Below are positions 7,006-33,253 of a DNA stretch of 64,000 nt, piece by piece (within the stretch, counting starts at the first letter, position 1; each line of letters begins with the position of its first letter). The notes under the pieces were generated by a model. The model was not told the origin of the DNA. It did no database searches and saw only the letters and a list, made by a program, of their open reading frames with translations. The position numbers and the translations under genes are program-made. The stretch is taken from sequence record PP534475.1, one strand, 5' to 3'. This stretch comes from Escherichia phage YJin-2024a.

Positions 7006-7473
7006 TTAAGTTTTAGTGACAACAGGTTTATAGAATGTATGTCCCTTAATCTTAGTTGTTTTCTTAAATTTCTTTGTCCAGTAAGGTTTATCTTTACCAC
7101 TATGGAAGTATAGTGCTCCATATGTAGGATCTTGTGGTAAATCAACGTAGTATATCACTCTAGCTAAATTCTTAGCGGTTTGCCAAGCCTCATCAGTTTT
7201 ATCAACTTTTGGTCTCTTAGATACCCAAGAGAACTGGTTAGACTGATATACTACTTTACAGTAGGAATCTGGGAATTTACCGGAGTTTACACGGTTTTTA
7301 GTAACATGTGCAATCGCCGTCATTCCCTTTATGCCCTCACCACGACTCTCGAAATAGATATTTTTAGCAATGCAATCTATTTCTTTTGCATCGTGCGATG
7401 CCTGACTACTAAAGCTGAAGGTAAGGGCAGCTACTAAAAGCAAAGCTGCCTTCATTCTTTTTACTCCTGCCAA
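7006..7473 (-). CDS. secreted SleB-family cell-wall hydrolase
   Basis: Signal peptide MKAALLLVAALTFSFSSQA; NIYFESRGEGIKGMTAIAHVTKNRV matches the SleB hydrolase motif. Confidence 0.6.
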   Translation of the reverse strand: MAGVKRMKAALLLVAALTFSFSSQASHDAKEIDCIAKNIYFESRGEGIKGMTAIAHVTKNRVNSGKFPDSYCKVVYQSNQFSWVSKRPKVDKTDEAWQTAKNLARVIYYVDLPQDPTYGALYFHSGKDKPYWTKKFKKTTKIKGHTFYKPVVTKT

Positions 7474-7778
7474 TCATATTCAACACGATTGGGATTTTCT
7501 TTATACCCTAAGTCAAGCAAATCATTACGCATAGTTTGCTTAGCTACTGGGTTCGAGGTTACTAGTACCACTTTCTTTGGTCTCTGCCCAAATTCTAAGA
7601 GTAAACGAAGAATTTGATAACCTTCCATACCATCTACAGCTAAGTCATTATCCATATAAATGAAGTGGCCTGTGGTATCAGTTTTATTCAGAAACTCTAC
7701 AGCGGCTTCTGGGGTTCGAATGATAATGTCCATTCCGTGAAGATTACGCACATCATCAATCAAAATATGAAAAGTCAT
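7461..7778 (-). CDS. CheY-like receiver (REC)/flavodoxin-fold protein
   Basis: HILIDD, YMDNDLAVDGMEGYQIL and VVLVTSN align to REC Asp-pair, phospho-acceptor and Thr positions; overlaps hydrolase gene by 13 nt. Confidence 0.45.
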   Translation of the reverse strand: MTFHILIDDVRNLHGMDIIIRTPEAAVEFLNKTDTTGHFIYMDNDLAVDGMEGYQILRLLLEFGQRPKKVVLVTSNPVAKQTMRNDLLDLGYKENPNRVEYDWQE

Positions 7779-11030: not shown

Positions 11031-11480
11031 TTAATTTATTAACTGTAAGCTTCTTTTAATTTCAGACCTTACCTGCATCAAAAGAACTCCTAAAGTATTA
11101 TCCCCGATGCCTCGGCAAACACCCCAATATGTATCTCCCCAGGTATTTCCTTCGATCAAAGTTGCATTTTTTGTTGCTAACAGTTTGTCTCTCAAATCAG
11201 GAATTGCAAACTTTAACCGTAAAAGCTCTAGCATTACATCATCTTTTACCTTATCCCAGTCAGAGCGCAGAGTTAATTTACGTCCTCTACGTTTGGCAAC
11301 TCCTGCGTTTAGGGAGCGTAGTACATGGGCTACATTATCTTTTTGGTCTGATTTCATAGCCTGAAAAGCATGTTCTACAGTATCAGCATGCCATATTTCA
11401 TTTAGATATTCGAAAGTAATTGGTGATAAATAAAAGTTTGATAAGAAACTATAAGTACCTTTAAATTCAGTAATCTTCAT
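11031..11480 (-). CDS. NADAR (YbiA-like) domain protein
   Basis: LSNFY, EHAFQAMK and GNTWGDTYWGVCRGIGDNTLGVLLMQVR align with E. coli YbiA (FSNF, EHYFQAQK, ENDAYWGDGGHGKGKNRLGYLLMELR). Confidence 0.75.
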   Translation of the reverse strand: MKITEFKGTYSFLSNFYLSPITFEYLNEIWHADTVEHAFQAMKSDQKDNVAHVLRSLNAGVAKRRGRKLTLRSDWDKVKDDVMLELLRLKFAIPDLRDKLLATKNATLIEGNTWGDTYWGVCRGIGDNTLGVLLMQVRSEIKRSLQLIN

Positions 11481-19458: not shown

Positions 19459-20130
19459 ATGGTAAGAAAGAGAATAACTACAGAAGATGTGAACTTAGCA
19501 CTTGCTCCTAGAGGAATAGTTATGCTAAGCACGTATATATCAGCTAAATCCAACGCTATATTTAAGTGCTCTAATGGGCATAGTTGGGAGGCTAGAGTAG
19601 ATAATGTAAAAGGTGGTAGAGGTTGCCCTTATTGTGCTAGCCGTACTTTGGATCTTAAAGAAGTAAATGAATCTTTAGCTGCCCGTGGAATAAAGATGGA
19701 AGGTAAATACATCAATTCCAAGAGTAAAATCATGTTTAGCTGTGAGAATGATCATAGGTGGGAGTCTACACTTGATAGTGTTAGGAATCATAATTCTGGC
19801 TGTCCTATATGTTTATTAGAGAAGGATAATTACCCTACTAACGTATATATTTTAGTAAGTAATATGGGAACCAAAATAGGGGTATCTAGCAGAACTAAAG
19901 ATAGACTCAGAGATATTAAAACTTCTTCTAACATACATGATTTAAAAATATTTAAGGAGTATAGCTTTTCAGATAGATCAAAAGCTATGCGTATTGAGAA
20001 AGAAACCCATTTACAGTTTAAGGAATATAATTGTCAATATAAAGATTTTGATGGTGCTACAGAATTTTTTAGTATTGAGCCAGAAGTAGTAGCAAGGTTT
20101 ATTGAGGAAATAATTAATGAACAAAGATGA
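19459..20130 (+). CDS. T5orf172/GIY-YIG-like protein with tandem N-terminal zinc ribbons (homing-endonuclease-like)
   Basis: Two KC.NGH.WE...CP.C repeats; NVYILVSNMGTKIGVSSRTKDRLRD resembles the T5orf172 core. Confidence 0.55.
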   Translation: MVRKRITTEDVNLALAPRGIVMLSTYISAKSNAIFKCSNGHSWEARVDNVKGGRGCPYCASRTLDLKEVNESLAARGIKMEGKYINSKSKIMFSCENDHRWESTLDSVRNHNSGCPICLLEKDNYPTNVYILVSNMGTKIGVSSRTKDRLRDIKTSSNIHDLKIFKEYSFSDRSKAMRIEKETHLQFKEYNCQYKDFDGATEFFSIEPEVVARFIEEIINEQR

Positions 20131-21971: not shown

Positions 21972-22008
21972 AGCCGGGTTGCTAGTCGACCTGGCTTTTA
22001 TTTTATTT
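21972..22008 (+). terminator. intrinsic terminator after nrdD
   Basis: 8-bp hairpin then TTTTATTTTATTT; overlaps the -35 of the next promoter. Confidence 0.55.
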
Positions 22009-22063: not shown

Positions 22064-22345
22064 ATGAGCGAATTGCTTCCTAAAGTAGATGTCTCCCATC
22101 TTGGAGAGCCTAGTGAAGAACGTAAGGCCCTAGATTGGTTGGGCGGATTTGATTATCGTCGTGTTGTTGCAACATGGAATGATAAGAAAGTTAAGAAGTT
22201 TCGGGTACATTATGTAGGTAAAGACAAGTGGCTCTGGATTGATTATGAAGAATCGAAGGGGTCTACTAAGGCTGTGAAAATTTATCGTATGTATGGGTAT
22301 TATTATGCTCACTGTGATAAGAATGAATTTACAGTACAGAACTAA
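22064..22345 (+). CDS. hypothetical protein
   Basis: 93-aa ORF directly after the promoter. Confidence 0.45.
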   Translation: MSELLPKVDVSHLGEPSEERKALDWLGGFDYRRVVATWNDKKVKKFRVHYVGKDKWLWIDYEESKGSTKAVKIYRMYGYYYAHCDKNEFTVQN

Positions 22346-22354
22346 GGAACAAGA

Positions 22355-22558
22355 ATGAAAAACGTAAAACATCTTAAATATCGCTTAATTTACAACGGAC
22401 GTATGGAAACAGAAGATCTGGCCCAGTTAGCTATTAATTCTAATGAGGTTACAGTGCGTGCGCTGGCAATTGAAAAGTTGCGTGCCTCCTATGAAAATCG
22501 TGTTATGGAACTAGAGGAGAAACTTTATGGCATTCTCGAAGCCGATGCTACCAGATAA
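22355..22558 (+). CDS. hypothetical protein
   Basis: 67-aa ORF. Confidence 0.4.
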   Translation: MKNVKHLKYRLIYNGRMETEDLAQLAINSNEVTVRALAIEKLRASYENRVMELEEKLYGILEADATR

Positions 22559-22748
22559 GGGTTTAAACGCCGCTTTGGAAAACGCATTAATGCAACACTG
22601 GGAAACTGGCTATAGGGATGGTGTTGAATCCTGCGCTACTATGCTAGAAGTTATTGCTAATACCTTAATGGAGAAAGGCAATAAAGAATTAGCTGAGCTA
22701 TTAGACAGTATTGGGCAAAACTTCAGAGAACAGGTGAAAAATGCGTAG
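22527..22748 (+). CDS. hypothetical protein
   Basis: 73-aa ORF overlapping both neighbours. Confidence 0.4.
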   Translation: MAFSKPMLPDKGLNAALENALMQHWETGYRDGVESCATMLEVIANTLMEKGNKELAELLDSIGQNFREQVKNA

Positions 22749-23556
22749 ATTAATTATTATTAGTGGTGCAGGTTTGAGTGTTGAAAGTGGTGTACGAGCT
22801 TTTCGTACTGATACTGCTAGTGGTAAAGCATTGTGGGATGATTATGATCTAGAAGAAGTATGTAATATTCATGCCTTTCGTGGTAATTTTTATCATAAAA
22901 CTCATATGTTTTACAACAAGCGTCGTGAAGAGCTAAAAACTGTTGAACCCAATCTTGCACATTTGCGTATTGGTGAATGGTATAAACAATATCCAGGTCA
23001 AATAGTAAACTTGACTACCAACGTTGATGACCTTATTGAGCGTGCTGGCGTTCCACATAGTGACATTCTGCACATTCACGGATATTTAAAAGAGGTTGTT
23101 GTAGCTGATAGCTACAATAGTAGCAATAAACGGATTATTGATGTAGGATACAATTCTATTGATCCAGATGATTATAAATGGGTTAAACCTAATGTAATCT
23201 TCTTTGGAGAGCATGCTCCTGCATATGCAGAAATGTACAATGTTTTTGATGGTATTACCAGTCAAGATATGATAGTTGTGGTTGGTTGTTCTAACCAAGT
23301 AATTAACTTCTACTGGGAATTATTTCCTGTTCTTAATTTGACTGCTGCGAAACTTATGGTTGTTAACTACTATGATAGTGCCCTAGCGGCGGAACCGGAC
23401 TATCAAGGTATGACTCGTAGTGAGATGTACCAGCTGGAAGAACGCGGTGTCCCTTACTGGAGTAAAGGTGCGGTAGATGCTTTCAGTGATCCTGATTTTA
23501 TTGCTCGTGTGGAAGCTCATTTAGAGGGTAGACCTTATGTGTCAGGAAATAAGTAA
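22741..23556 (+). CDS. Sir2 (sirtuin-fold) protein lacking the zinc-ribbon module
   Basis: SGAGLSVESGVRAFR, TTNVDDLIERAG, HIHGY, NVIFFGE, VVVGCS match sirtuin Rossmann-fold motifs; no CxxC pairs. Confidence 0.65.
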   Translation: MRRLIIISGAGLSVESGVRAFRTDTASGKALWDDYDLEEVCNIHAFRGNFYHKTHMFYNKRREELKTVEPNLAHLRIGEWYKQYPGQIVNLTTNVDDLIERAGVPHSDILHIHGYLKEVVVADSYNSSNKRIIDVGYNSIDPDDYKWVKPNVIFFGEHAPAYAEMYNVFDGITSQDMIVVVGCSNQVINFYWELFPVLNLTAAKLMVVNYYDSALAAEPDYQGMTRSEMYQLEERGVPYWSKGAVDAFSDPDFIARVEAHLEGRPYVSGNK

Positions 23557-24049
23557 TACTCCAATTATTTTTCTGGACATTGATGGGGTGCTCAATTCGA
23601 GCATCTCCCACCATCATGCACCTGATGATGAAAAGATTTTCTTTGGGAGTGACTGGGTTTTCAAACCGCTTCTCAAGGCTTTTCAAGATTTTATTCGTCC
23701 TTCCTCGATAATGATTGTTGGGGTATCCTCATGGTTCTCTGTCAGGAATGAGATGGAGAACGTTCAGATTATGACCGGATTAGGTCTTATCGATCGTTTT
23801 CTTGGTACAACGGATTTTACTGGTGGTGGATTATCTAGGGGTAATTCTGTTCTTCGCTTCGTTGAAAAGCATAAGCTCAAACATTGGTGTGTGCTGGATG
23901 ATGCCGGTGCTATGATGTATCAGTATCCAACGGTTATAGTCAATGGTAGGACTGGGATAAATCTTCAAGATTTAAAAGCTGTTAGCTATATGCTAGAATT
24001 TAGCCCAGATCTTGAAATGTGTAAATCCTTGCAACAATTTAAGGTGTAA
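23537..24049 (+). CDS. HAD-superfamily phosphatase
   Basis: Motif I FLDIDGVL and motif IV VLDDAG; overlaps the Sir2-like gene by 20 nt. Confidence 0.55.
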   Translation: MCQEISNTPIIFLDIDGVLNSSISHHHAPDDEKIFFGSDWVFKPLLKAFQDFIRPSSIMIVGVSSWFSVRNEMENVQIMTGLGLIDRFLGTTDFTGGGLSRGNSVLRFVEKHKLKHWCVLDDAGAMMYQYPTVIVNGRTGINLQDLKAVSYMLEFSPDLEMCKSLQQFKV

Positions 24050-24051
24050 AT

Positions 24052-24480
24052 ATGTTCAATAATGTATTCTCTAAAGAAGCTAACCCAATTTTGGTTAACT
24101 TTTGGCGTACTCTCCCAGCTAGCCTGTATAATGAGGCTATTAACTCTTTGAAAATATGGTGTGAGAATAACGAAATCTCCTTTGCTTTTAAAGATGATAT
24201 TGATGAGGCTCCCTGTATTGGTTTAATTGTGCAGGTAGAGGAGGGTCTTGAAGAGATTGTGGGCTGGAAAGAGTTAGACGAAATGGGCTTAGTTTTTGCG
24301 TTAAACTATAAGTTGTTTATGCCCAACAAACACCGTATTGCTATTAATTATAAAACTAGTGAATCTCCTGGTTTTCAGGTTAATGAACGTTACGGTTGGT
24401 CTTACTCACCAGAAGAAGTGAATGATGGCATCCAAAAACTTCGCCGTTTTGGTTATCAAATTCCGGGTTTAACTGCCTAA
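24052..24480 (+). CDS. hypothetical protein, paralog A of a tandem pair
   Basis: Shares with the next ORF the pattern D.PC.G......G.E...W.EL..MGL..ALN..LF.P......I...PGL. Confidence 0.5.
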   Translation: MFNNVFSKEANPILVNFWRTLPASLYNEAINSLKIWCENNEISFAFKDDIDEAPCIGLIVQVEEGLEEIVGWKELDEMGLVFALNYKLFMPNKHRIAINYKTSESPGFQVNERYGWSYSPEEVNDGIQKLRRFGYQIPGLTA

Positions 24481-24489
24481 GGAGGCAGG

Positions 24490-24879
24490 ATGGAACAAGT
24501 ATATTGGCGTCAGATTGACCCTAGTTTGGTGAAACGTGCGGAGAAGCTGCTACAACGTTGGTTGGGGGTAAGGCAAGCCTCCTTCACTTTTCCTGAGCAG
24601 CAAACAGATGATCCCTGTGTTGGTGTTTTCCTATCCGGCTACGCGGGGGAATGGGAATTAGATTGGAATGAATTGTCTGCTATGGGCTTGATTGTTGCCC
24701 TAAACTTCTCTTTGTTCCATCCACGTGGTTTGGCCATATGTCGTGTGCCGGATGACGGTTGTTCGCCCCATCTTTTACAGGTGGAAGATGATATTTGGGA
24801 GTACACTCCAGATATTCTCAAAGAAGCTAAAGAACAATTAAACCGTGTTGGGATCTATGTTCCGGGATTAAATGACTAA
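24490..24879 (+). CDS. hypothetical protein, paralog B of a tandem pair
   Basis: Same architecture as 24052-24480; own RBS AAGGAGG. Confidence 0.5.
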   Translation: MEQVYWRQIDPSLVKRAEKLLQRWLGVRQASFTFPEQQTDDPCVGVFLSGYAGEWELDWNELSAMGLIVALNFSLFHPRGLAICRVPDDGCSPHLLQVEDDIWEYTPDILKEAKEQLNRVGIYVPGLND

Positions 24880-24973
24880 TGATTTTTATTAGCTGAACTC
24901 TGATTACCGAGTCATTTTGGCTCGGATTATTACATAATCTTTCCAGTTAATTGACAGTATGAATAAATTGTCA

Positions 24974-25002
24974 TTGACAAATTGGATGGATTATGTAATA
25001 AT
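24974..25002 (+). promoter_or_regulatory. promoter TTGACA-17-AATAAT with TG extension
   Basis: Two TTGACA hexamers (24951, 24974) upstream of the HNH gene. Confidence 0.45.
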
Positions 25003-25021
25003 ATATGTATTGGAGGTAAAG

Positions 25022-25474
25022 ATGTCGCTCACACAACAAGAACTTTTAGATAATTTCCGATATGAAGATGGAAAATTATTTAGAACTACAGGAAGAAATG
25101 CAGGCAAGGAATGTTGTGTTTCAACGGGAAATGGTTATTACCGTATTTCTCTAGGGAGTAGAACTATGCTCCGACACAGAGCTATCTTCTTAATGCATCA
25201 TGGATACTTACCTGATTTGGTAGATCATGAGAACACTATAAAAGGTGATGATCGTATTGAAAATCTTAGGGAGCAGACAGTATCTGGTAATCTAAGAAAT
25301 ATCAAATATAAGAAAGGAATGCATGTTTACCCTTCTGGTAGTAAGAACTGGCAAGTAGTATTTACTATTAACCGTAAACGGATAGTTAAAGGAACATATG
25401 ACAACTATGAGGTTGCATGTTCTATGGCCAAGATGTTTAGAGGCCAATTATATGGTAGGGAATCAATCCAGTAA
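25022..25474 (+). CDS. HNH homing endonuclease
   Basis: HRAIFLMHHGYLPDLVDHENTIKGDDRIENLR is an HNH motif; start moved to MSLTQQ (RBS GGAGG). Confidence 0.6.
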   Translation: MSLTQQELLDNFRYEDGKLFRTTGRNAGKECCVSTGNGYYRISLGSRTMLRHRAIFLMHHGYLPDLVDHENTIKGDDRIENLREQTVSGNLRNIKYKKGMHVYPSGSKNWQVVFTINRKRIVKGTYDNYEVACSMAKMFRGQLYGRESIQ

Positions 25475-31308: not shown

Positions 31309-32280
31309 ATGACTAATGTAAAAGAATTTATTAAACGCTGTCAAGAAGCATATTATCAAGGCATGTCTTTAATCTCTGATGAGGAATATGATCGTCTTAT
31401 TAAAAGATTCCCACTAGAGGAAGAGATCGGGCCTAAGGGCGATATTCCACATCTATATCGTATGTATTCTTTACAGAAAGTTTATTATAATCGTGGAGAT
31501 AAGCCCCCATTTAACCCATTAGGTCAGGTAGAAACTGATAAGTTAGATGGTTGTGCGATTTCTCTGTTATATATTAATGGCGAATTTGTTCAAGCACTAA
31601 CTCGTGGTAATGGCATTCTAGGGAATGATGTCACAAGCAACGTAAGACTGCTGAACATCCCTAAAAAGATTTCCCAAAAAGTACCTACTCAAATCACTGG
31701 TGAAGTTCTAATTACAAAAGAAGTAGAAAATAAACGTAACTTTGCCTCTGGTGCTATTAACCTCAAAGATAGTGATGATTTCGTACAACGTATCGGAGAA
31801 GGTGGTTTAATCTTCGTCGCATATGGTATCCAGTGTTCTGCTGAATCTGTAGGTATTACAGAAACGTATTTAAAAGATATGCTTTGGCTAGAGAATGAGA
31901 ACTTCTTAACAGTTGTTAATGTGCGTTCCTTCTTTAAATGGATTCCGACGGATGGTAAAGTTGTTCGTATTAATGACAACAACAAATTCTTCCGAGAAGG
32001 CTGGACTAATAAATTCCCTCGTGGAGCATTCGCTATTAAAGAGGATGAAGAAGGCGAGATTACAACTCTTACTAAAGTTGAATGGCAGGTAGGGGCTTCT
32101 GGTAAAGTAACTCCAGTTGGTTATTTTGAACCGGTAATTATTGATGATGCTACAATTGTTAAAGCGACTCTTAATAACGTTGATTATATTAACTCTCTTG
32201 ATCTAGAGATCGGTTGCCAGATTCGAGTGATTCGTGCTGGTGGTGTAATCCCGTGCATAGTAGAGCGAGTATACGATTAA
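31309..32280 (+). CDS. NAD-dependent DNA ligase, N-terminal adenylation/OB part
   Basis: KxDG active-site motif ETDKLDGCAI; ends where the LigA zinc-finger region would start. Confidence 0.75.
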   Translation: MTNVKEFIKRCQEAYYQGMSLISDEEYDRLIKRFPLEEEIGPKGDIPHLYRMYSLQKVYYNRGDKPPFNPLGQVETDKLDGCAISLLYINGEFVQALTRGNGILGNDVTSNVRLLNIPKKISQKVPTQITGEVLITKEVENKRNFASGAINLKDSDDFVQRIGEGGLIFVAYGIQCSAESVGITETYLKDMLWLENENFLTVVNVRSFFKWIPTDGKVVRINDNNKFFREGWTNKFPRGAFAIKEDEEGEITTLTKVEWQVGASGKVTPVGYFEPVIIDDATIVKATLNNVDYINSLDLEIGCQIRVIRAGGVIPCIVERVYD

Positions 32281-32452: not shown

Positions 32453-32482
32453 ATTTATATAAATTGATAAGGAAGAAATTTG

Positions 32483-33253
32483 ATGAAAATCGAAATTCCA
32501 ACACAATGTCCCTCTTGTGGTTCTAAGCTAGATCTTGTCAACGGACAATTATTCTGTCGGAATAAGTCCAACTGTCCAGCGCAATCAAGTAAGTTAATTG
32601 AGAACTTCTGTACAAAAATGAAGTTAAAGGGCTTTGGCCCAAAAACTATTGAGAAGCTGGAGCTGACGAAGATTTCAGAACTATTTTACCTAACCGAAGA
32701 AGATTTGGTTAGAGCCGTGGGTAGCAAGGTTGCCGCTAAGTTAATTAGCGAATTAAATACTAAAGTTCGCGGAGACATTGACTTTGGTTCAGTTCTCGGT
32801 TCTTTAGGAATCCCTCTAATTGGAGAGGTTGCAGCAAAGAAATTATCCCAAAATTGCACTAGCTTCCACGATGTGAAGGCTGACGGCAAGGCTGGAGAAA
32901 ATTATAAAGCCTGGCTAAATTCCCCACAAGGCAAGGATGTTATCGAACTGCCGTGGAAATTCTCAACTGGTGCTAAAGCTAAAACTGTCGTTACAGATGA
33001 ATTAGTTGCCCAGTCAAACGGAATCGCGGTATGTATTACCGGATCTTTGCAAGATTTTGCAAATAGAACGGATGCAACAAACTATTTAGAAAGTCTAGGG
33101 TATACGGTTAAGAAATCCGTTACTAAAGACGTCAAATACCTAATCTGTGAGGATGAATCAAAACGTTCTTCCTCATCTTATAAGAAAGCCGAAACGAATG
33201 GGATAGAAATCCTGTCGATTAAAGAACTATTGGAGAAAAATAATAATGTCTAA
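32483..33253 (+). CDS. NAD-dependent DNA ligase, C-terminal Zn-finger/HhH/BRCT part
   Basis: CPSCGSKLDLVNGQLFCRNKSNCPAQ is the LigA zinc-finger; start taken at ATG 32483. Confidence 0.75.
   Translation: MKIEIPTQCPSCGSKLDLVNGQLFCRNKSNCPAQSSKLIENFCTKMKLKGFGPKTIEKLELTKISELFYLTEEDLVRAVGSKVAAKLISELNTKVRGDIDFGSVLGSLGIPLIGEVAAKKLSQNCTSFHDVKADGKAGENYKAWLNSPQGKDVIELPWKFSTGAKAKTVVTDELVAQSNGIAVCITGSLQDFANRTDATNYLESLGYTVKKSVTKDVKYLICEDESKRSSSSYKKAETNGIEILSIKELLEKNNNV

Follow-up and report, generated by a model that had tools for sequence, protein, structure and literature searches.

Escherichia phage YJin-2024a (PP534475.1), a T5-like phage (Tequintavirus, Demerecviridae), carries in its early region an open reading frame (ORF) for a Sir2-family protein (sirtuin) whose 3′ end overlaps an ORF for a HAD-superfamily phosphatase, and we analysed this Sir2-HAD pair within a 64,000-nucleotide (nt) stretch of the genome, hereafter the window. 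The sirtuin is a divergent branch of the canonical class III-like (CobB/SIRT5-like) sirtuins and not a defence-type NADase domain. We give a little under even odds (a probability of about 0.45) to the reading that the Sir2-HAD operon heals damaged RNA ends using nicotinamide adenine dinucleotide (NAD+), as predicted by Iyer, Burroughs, Anantharaman and Aravind in 2022 (Viruses 14:1977; PMC9503650). An earlier reading of the window from its letters alone (the original prediction) had pointed out the pair, an observation that is confirmed as real and correctly located, and had drawn from it an interpretation that needs correcting. The two genes are as follows.

22741-23556, + strand: zinc-less phage-clade sirtuin (T5 'cobB'), 271 amino acids (aa); PF02146, E = 1.7e-24; phrog_2162, E = 1.4e-120.
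23537-24049, + strand: capless HAD-superfamily phosphatase, HAD_SAK_2, 170 aa; PF18143, E = 2.8e-20; catalytic residues D14xD16, S64/S65, R101 and D121D122.

The finding is not new in its main elements, with T5 'cobb' annotated since 2005, the zinc-less state described in 2016, and the Sir2-HAD neighbourhood together with a mechanism published in 2022. Skliros et al. modelled the Sir2/CobB proteins of Vibrio phages, reported that these, like that of KVP40, had no zinc ligand and kept the catalytic His, listed T5 among the phages with a Sir2/CobB homologue, and proposed deacetylation of host acetyl-CoA synthetase (PMC5107563). The window sirtuin shares both features with the proteins of the Vibrio schizoT4-like phages KVP40, phiSt2 and phiGrn1, although no HAD neighbour was described in that study (PMC5107563). 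Iyer et al. then delineated a separate clade of viral sirtuins that occur in three types of gene neighbourhood, one of which, a sirtuin with a 'Swiss-army-knife' (SAK) HAD, was found in the T5-like phage SP15, and predicted that the sirtuins of this clade remove 2′-phosphates from RNA in the manner of KptA/Tpt1, with HAD, cREC, 2H and Nudix proteins opening the cyclic phosphate or processing an ADP-ribose cyclic-phosphate product (PMC9503650). As SP15 is a Tequintavirus, the exact Sir2-HAD pair has already been described; the window holds the same two adjacent genes in the same genus, with nothing substantive different, and its sirtuin belongs to this clade both by homology to the V5, Mydo and SP15 sirtuins and by a conserved RNA-end-processing neighbourhood. 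The original prediction, which had called the direction of the NAD chemistry unknown, overlooked this specific proposal of KptA-like RNA 2′-phosphate removal (PMC9503650).

The Sir2 ORF matched PF02146 (SIR2) at 87.2 bits (cutoff 24) over profile positions 1-178 of 180, and it contains the sirtuin motifs GAGLSVESG (residues 9-17), FR (21-22), TNVDD (93-97), HG (113-114), KPNVIFFGE (149-157), GCS (182-184) and VVN (207-209). Residues G9-A10-G11-S13, F21-R22, N94/D96, H113-G114, G182/S184 and N209 were invariant among 48 homologues, and the motifs were likewise invariant in 120 homologues of at least 50% identity, with the same outcome in curated sets of 12 and 48 sequences. A HMMER search of 1.84 billion representative sequences recovered 2,967 sirtuin relatives at E ≤ 1e-3, the best 150 of which were aligned, and the catalytic His, H113 in the phage protein, was retained in 150 of 150 representatives. 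The closest solved relative by sequence was E. coli CobB (E = 1.8e-17), and in the alignment of the two the phage protein keeps GAGxSxxSG, FR, NxD, HG and the (K/R)PxVVxFGE loop. In addition, Y58-x-x-R61 aligns with the FYNARR segment of CobB and was invariant in the 48 homologues and present in 113 of 151 representatives; in SIRT5 and CobB the Y-x-x-R residues line the pocket for acidic acyl groups.

By contrast with CobB and SIRT5, the phage sirtuin has no Cys4 zinc module between HG and FGE, the equivalent stretch (residues 114-148) being free of cysteine, and across the 120 homologues no conserved cysteine column was found there. The Gln of TQN(I/V)D is replaced as well, the phage protein reading TTNVD with T93 invariant in the phage clade (89 representatives have Gln and 44 have Thr at this position), and the VYP of CobB/SIRT5 has become VIN. 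The AlphaFold2 (AF2) model of the phage protein, with a predicted local distance difference test (pLDDT) score of 90.5, places an ordered three-stranded sheet where the zinc module would lie, with pLDDT 91-96 for residues 111-150. A Foldseek comparison of this model with the PDB returned E. coli CobB first (E = 8e-18; template modelling score normalised to the target, 0.84), followed by Sir2Af1 and SIRT5, and PfSir2A was likewise among the best sequence and structure matches. The defence SIR2 domains all ranked behind CobB, Sir2Af1 and SIRT5, with scores of 13.1 for PsSIR2, 12.3 for Nezha SIR2-HerA, 12.2 for ThsA, 9.6 for AVAST5 and 9.4 for Avs5. Among NCBIfam models only those for CobB-type deacylases matched (NF001753 at 101 bits against a cutoff of 243, and NF040867 at 90 against 320), so that the phage protein does not reach the CobB equivalog or subfamily cutoffs. 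The Foldseek ranking, the matches to CobB-type models only and the absence of any PADLOC match at E ≤ 1 lead us to place the phage protein in the class III-like branch and not with the defence NADases.

These nearest relatives favour the main rival to RNA healing, a CobB/SIRT5-type NAD+-dependent lysine deacylase, possibly a desuccinylase or demalonylase, which would reset the acylation of host or phage proteins early in infection, for instance that of metabolic enzymes or of acetyltransferase-based defences, while the HAD performed an unrelated job. Conservation extends to the catalytic His, FR, FGE and the YxxR desuccinylase signature, the small domain is predicted to remain ordered in spite of its missing zinc, and a deacylase function was argued for in the 2016 Vibrio-phage study (PMC5107563). 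On the other hand, the score lies far under the CobB equivalog cutoffs, the TQNID Gln and the VYP substrate loop are altered throughout the clade, no target is known, and lysine deacylation does not explain why, in phage families unrelated to one another, sirtuins of this clade are repeatedly linked to genes for RNA ligase, cREC, kinase and HAD proteins. Weighing both sides, we consider a protein deacylase unlikely, if the strongest of the competitors.

The loss of zinc followed a pattern among the relatives. In the best 150 of the 2,967, the combination of Thr in place of Gln with zero cysteines was found in 33 sequences with a median rank of 22, the nearest relatives, and that of Gln with at least four cysteines in 73 sequences with a median rank of 82, the more distant ones. 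Mixed states also occurred, with Thr and zinc together in 9 sequences and Gln without zinc in 11, and these lead us to regard zinc loss as what appears to be a recurrent change within one sirtuin subfamily, characteristic of the phage clade. The clusters that hold the nearest zinc-bearing relatives consist for the most part of metagenomic proteins. One zinc-bearing relative of the TQNID type (locus L013, 4714-5427) lies on a cellular contig, adjoining genes for a lipoate-protein ligase (LplA) and an MpPF1-family (Mollicutes-type) protein, a context that resembles SirTM operons without being identical to them. Class M (SirTM) sirtuins have QG in place of HG, retain their zinc domain and come with a linked Macro gene (PMC4518038); membership of the phage protein in class M was rejected, as it retains HG and has no Macro neighbour gene.

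The original prediction was thus right that a Sir2-fold ORF has its NAD-binding motifs and no zinc cysteines, and the structural model and the retained His113 agree with it; its further step, that a zinc-less protein of this kind belongs with the NADase-type domains of defence systems, was not borne out. Such a protein would serve the phage to consume host NAD+, in the manner of ThsA, DSR or SIR2-HerA, and the phage sirtuin does resemble the defence SIR2 NADases (ThsA, DSR1/2, SIR2-HerA/Nezha, SPARSA, Avs5) in having a Sir2-type Rossmann core without the Cys4 zinc ribbon and with every NAD-binding residue intact. However, it is a canonical PF02146 member whose closest structural neighbours are not defence SIR2 domains, no PADLOC defence model matched at E ≤ 1, and zinc loss is scattered through an otherwise zinc-bearing subfamily in which zinc-bearing and zinc-less members intermix. 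Moreover, the protein stands alone at 271 aa, with no fused or adjacent SLOG, HerA, pAgo, STAND or DSR C-terminal domain, its neighbours being small ORFs, the HAD and the DUF7415 genes. The phage also depends on NAD+ itself, since it encodes its own NAD+-dependent DNA ligase, split as in T5 into an adenylation and OB part (31309-32280, +) and an HhH and BRCT part (32480-33253, +), so that depleting NAD+ would harm its own replication. We therefore regard an NADase as very improbable.

The second gene of the pair matched PF18143 (HAD_SAK_2) at 73.5 bits (cutoff 27.5), with a Rossmannoid fold of the capless type. Over 27 homologues reaching down to 27% identity, D14xD16, S64/S65 and R101 were invariant and D121/D122 invariant or nearly so, all four catalytic motifs being present, suggesting that the HAD is an apparently active phosphatase. 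A sequence search of the PDB with the HAD found nothing. It resembles the capless (C0) HADs MDP-1 and the Scp1/Fcp1 C-terminal domain (CTD) phosphatases in its HAD core, its DxD nucleophile motif and the short flap that stands in for a cap, and may be compared in function with the phosphatase domain of T4 Pnkp. Of the 498 phage records that contain the HAD, about 437 are T5-like. Many T5-like GenBank and RefSeq records label this gene as a second Sir2 ('Sir2 (x2)'), because phrog_18062, a 92-residue profile misnamed 'Sir2 (NAD-dependent deacetylase)', matches the C-terminal half of the HAD (E = 6e-58); certain database records name it 'RNA repair protein'. Sir2-HAD fusions were absent from the 120 and 150 homologues, with three representatives of 485-528 aa left outside this check.

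Elsewhere, HAD_SAK_2 homologues of 36-41% identity lie directly upstream of a pair of Prs-like and NAPRTase/NAMPT-like genes, namely in Serratia phage ChuuTotoro, Acinetobacter phage ABPH49 and a 152-kb metagenomic phage; the three loci that combine these genes are:

L006, 5001-8217: HAD with Prs-like and NAPRTase/NAMPT-like genes.
L009, 5001-8222: HAD with Prs-like and NAPRTase/NAMPT-like genes.
L010, 5001-8569: HAD with Prs-like and NAPRTase/NAMPT-like genes.

The ORF upstream of these HADs was considered as a degenerate Sir2 and rejected, having no similarity to Sir2 and being weakly helix-turn-helix-like. We found no published mention of a HAD_SAK_2 beside a NARP1-type pair. Because the Prs-like and NAPRTase/NAMPT-like pair is the domain signature of NARP1, to which phages add an ADP-ribose-1″-phosphate (ADPR-1″P) phosphatase (bioRxiv 10.64898/2026.01.28.702374), the HAD in these loci may play the part of the NARP1-associated phosphatase without being a Macro protein. 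This arrangement speaks for a module acting on small NAD-derived molecules, in which the HAD would dephosphorylate an ADPR-1″-phosphate-like product and, with the sirtuin, clear or recycle the products of NAD+-targeting host defences, and Iyer et al. allow for a HAD that processes an ADP-ribose cyclic-phosphate product (PMC9503650). Yet the characterised phosphatase, Adpp, is a Macro domain encoded inside the Adps-Namat operon (bioRxiv 10.64898/2026.01.28.702374), whereas the HAD of the window is no Macro domain and neither T5 nor the window has such an operon, tblastn detecting no Prs-like or Nampt-like gene in either. The NARP1-adjacent HAD is also confined to a single phage lineage with three isolate records, capless HADs more typically act on macromolecular substrates, and a small-molecule module gives the sirtuin no role, which together make it improbable. 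A variant in which HAD_SAK_2 forms a second, non-Macro class of ADP-ribose-phosphate phosphatase that feeds NAD+ reconstitution by phages is less likely than the RNA 2′-phosphotransferase put forward below.

The case for RNA healing draws on the neighbours of the sirtuin in other phages. By tblastn the sirtuin was found in 1,007 phage records, covering T5-likes, Vequintavirinae (V5, phi92, phAPEC8, Mydovirus), Klebsiella, Erwinia, Vibrio schizoT4-like and jumbo phages, with 50-65% identity to the Vequintavirinae and Mydovirus sirtuins and 38-40% to those of Vibrio phages across 76% of the query. Vequintavirinae homologues of 56-62% identity sit in clusters of RNA ligase, cREC (cyclic-phosphate-processing receiver domain), in some cases an ATPase, and Sir2; in Shigella phage CM1 and Raoultella phage Ro1, where Pfam confirmed the cREC identity (E = 5e-15 and 7e-18), genes for a phosphoesterase, a DNA ligase and a nucleotide pyrophosphohydrolase lie close by. 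The sirtuin clade recurs beside genes for RNA ligase, cREC and kinase proteins across phage families that are not related. In Aeromonas phage Aeh1 a HAD homologue is encoded two genes ahead of RNA ligase 1 (RnlA), and a gene of the DUF7415 family, two members of which follow the Sir2-HAD pair in the window, stands immediately downstream of the ligase (locus L014, 6796-7029), giving a HAD-RnlA-DUF7415 cluster with components in common with the window operon. Klebsiella phage Spivey (Sugarlandvirus) is missing the HAD, yet two DUF7415 genes come after its Sir2. One of the Spivey DUF7415 copies carries the annotation 'RNA-binding protein'; a PDB sequence search with DUF7415 returned nothing meaningful. 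The window itself encodes a cREC protein, a possible distal partner:

7461-7778, - strand: cREC protein, 105 aa; PF20274, E = 9.8e-15, 55.5 bits (cutoff 27).

The cREC gene lies 15 kb from the Sir2-HAD operon on the other strand, adjoining a gene for a SleB-like cell-wall hydrolase (7006-7473), and its functional tie to the operon would follow by analogy with the clusters of other phages. Three points are additions to the published SP15-type picture: the unit includes two DUF7415 genes, a cREC gene lies at a distance in the same genome, and T5-likes lack an RNA ligase.

From these neighbourhoods and from the conserved residues we infer the following chemical steps and substrates. Metal-independent host RNases, such as anticodon nucleases and toxins, would cut tRNA or mRNA to leave 2′,3′-cyclic phosphate ends, and a cyclic phosphodiesterase, for which the cREC protein is a candidate, would open these ends to a 2′-phosphate. 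The sirtuin may then act like KptA, removing the 2′-phosphate from RNA in an NAD+-dependent manner, and the capless HAD may remove a phosphate, either one still present at the RNA terminus or the one on the ADP-ribose product. Sealing of the healed ends would be left to a host enzyme, because T5-like phages encode no RNA ligase. An anionic nucleophile such as phosphate would fit the sirtuin, given that the anion-binding Y-x-x-R pair is invariant in the phage clade, and the elements altered in this clade are those that clamp the peptide (zinc module, VYP loop and TQNID Gln), the NAD site, the catalytic His and Y-x-x-R being invariant. In having no cap the HAD resembles MDP-1, Scp1 and Fcp1, which are HADs with macromolecular substrates, and a phage with the large tRNA set annotated in T5 would have a need for RNA repair. 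Tpt1/KptA itself has an ADP-ribosyltransferase (ART) fold, unrelated to the Rossmannoid fold of the phage sirtuin, and would be a functional analogue only. We further put forward, as a tentative and more specific version that is possible and on balance doubtful, that the T5 sirtuin is a non-ART NAD+-dependent RNA 2′-phosphotransferase convergent with Tpt1/KptA, which would have shed its zinc and peptide-clamp module and reused the Y-x-x-R pocket for a phosphate nucleophile, and which would form, with the capless HAD, the two DUF7415 proteins and the distal cREC, a ligase-less counter-defence module that heals RNA ends and hands them to a host ligase.

Several observations weigh against RNA healing by the Sir2-HAD operon. 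Both T5 and the window are without a detectable RNA ligase and polynucleotide kinase, which leaves the pathway incomplete and the model with a genuine gap: four phage RNA ligases used as tblastn queries gave no RNA ligase in either genome sequence (all E > 1), the same kind of search gave no polynucleotide kinase, and the by-products of the ligase, kinase, Prs and Nampt queries were the cREC match and a weak phosphoesterase match. The closest solved relatives of the sirtuin are true protein deacylases, and the residues of the acyl-lysine tunnel, F21, H113 and FGE, are retained. The HAD is not obligatorily tied to Sir2: in Aeromonas T4-like phages it occurs with no Sir2 beside it, and in ABPH49-like phages it lies next to a NARP1-type operon. 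Taken alone, the adjacency of genes in a phage early region is weak evidence, and in the literature we found no experimental study, biochemical or genetic, of any phage sirtuin.

If the published prediction is true, sirtuins gain a new class of substrate, RNA phosphate ends, and T5, a classical model phage, carries a so far unrecognised means of countering host defences that cleave RNA. Given the genetic tractability of T5 and the small size of both Sir2 and the HAD, the question is directly testable, and what remains of it is experimental rather than genomic. The present analysis contributes a corrected reading, in which Sir2 is neither a defence-type NADase nor linked to the NADAR gene considered below, exposes the widespread mislabel of the HAD gene as 'Sir2', and adds context in the form of the DUF7415 and cREC links and the missing RNA ligase.

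The pair belongs to a larger unit in the T5 early region, between the anaerobic ribonucleotide reductase gene (nrdD) and the replication genes. Many T5-like phages of Salmonella and Escherichia share the surrounding 3 kb at 95-97% identity, with 445 matching records headed by phages SCF, L6jm and Kenya-K37, all Tequintavirus. Besides Sir2 and the HAD, the features of the unit are:

21972-21996, + strand: terminator-like hairpin 3′ of nrdD, the upstream edge of the unit; 10-bp stem with 6 GC pairs, then a T-run.
22064-22345, + strand: first small ORF of the operon, 93 aa, no known function; phrog_7953, E = 8.8e-66; no Pfam match.
22355-22558, + strand: small ORF, 67 aa, function unknown; phrog_5236, E = 3.7e-46.
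22527-22748, + strand: small ORF, 73 aa, function unknown; phrog_5827, E = 1.3e-30.
24052-24480, + strand: DUF7415 protein a, 142 aa, co-transcribed with the Sir2-HAD pair; PF24187, E = 1e-34; phrog_2502.
24490-24879, + strand: DUF7415 protein b, 129 aa, paralogue of protein a and last in the unit; PF24187, E = 2.5e-31.

The unit is thus a T5-type early operon that runs from three small ORFs of unknown function through Sir2 and the HAD to two paralogous DUF7415 genes. Its boundaries follow from the hairpin after nrdD, from the T5 annotation of a terminator and then the early promoter T5P31 at the equivalent site, and from a terminator annotated in T5 directly 3′ of the orthologue of the second DUF7415 gene. 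A promoter scan across the operon gave 16 sites against 12.0 ± 3.4 in shuffled sequence, which is not above expectation. The stop of the 73-aa ORF overlaps the Sir2 start by 8 nt (ATGCGTAG), and a Shine-Dalgarno-like GAGGGT/AGGTGA precedes the starts of both Sir2 and the HAD. The overlap of Sir2 with a HAD phosphatase, as originally predicted, is present and measures 20 nt (HAD ATG at 23537; Sir2 TAA at 23554-23556). In T5 proper, cobB and the HAD are separated by two unannotated small ORFs of 61 and 60 aa, both with a WCYR motif (AY587007, 57312-57670; locus L012, 5313-5498 and 5489-5671), and since the N-terminus of the window HAD, MCQE, is the beginning of the first of these intervening ORFs, the overlap is a lineage detail that stems from the lack, relative to T5, of a segment of about 320 nt. 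A comparison with T5 shows purifying selection on both genes, with ratios of nonsynonymous to synonymous polymorphism (pN/pS) of 0.11 for Sir2 and 0.04 for the HAD.

The window also contains a NADAR (YbiA-like) gene (11031-11480, - strand; PF08719, E = 5.8e-22), located between a DUF7022 gene and an RNase H gene, which the original prediction had joined with the Sir2-HAD pair as a sign of phage interference with NAD/ADP-ribose chemistry. The link to such chemistry is reasonable from the Sir2 side; the NADAR part of it did not hold, and we rejected a functional link between NADAR and the pair, from which it lies 11 kb away on the opposite strand in a different early cluster and transcription unit. 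NADAR is moreover an accessory gene: T5 and L6jm lack it, and 95 phage records have it at 95% identity or above, about a fifth of the roughly 437 T5-like records with the HAD.

Genes of the homing-endonuclease type flank the block from nrdD to DUF7415. The HNH_3 gene 3′ of the operon (24959-25474, + strand) is absent in several near relatives, for example Kenya-K37 and L6jm, and on the other side of the block lies a T5orf172/MUG113 gene with zinc-finger domains (19459-20130, + strand).

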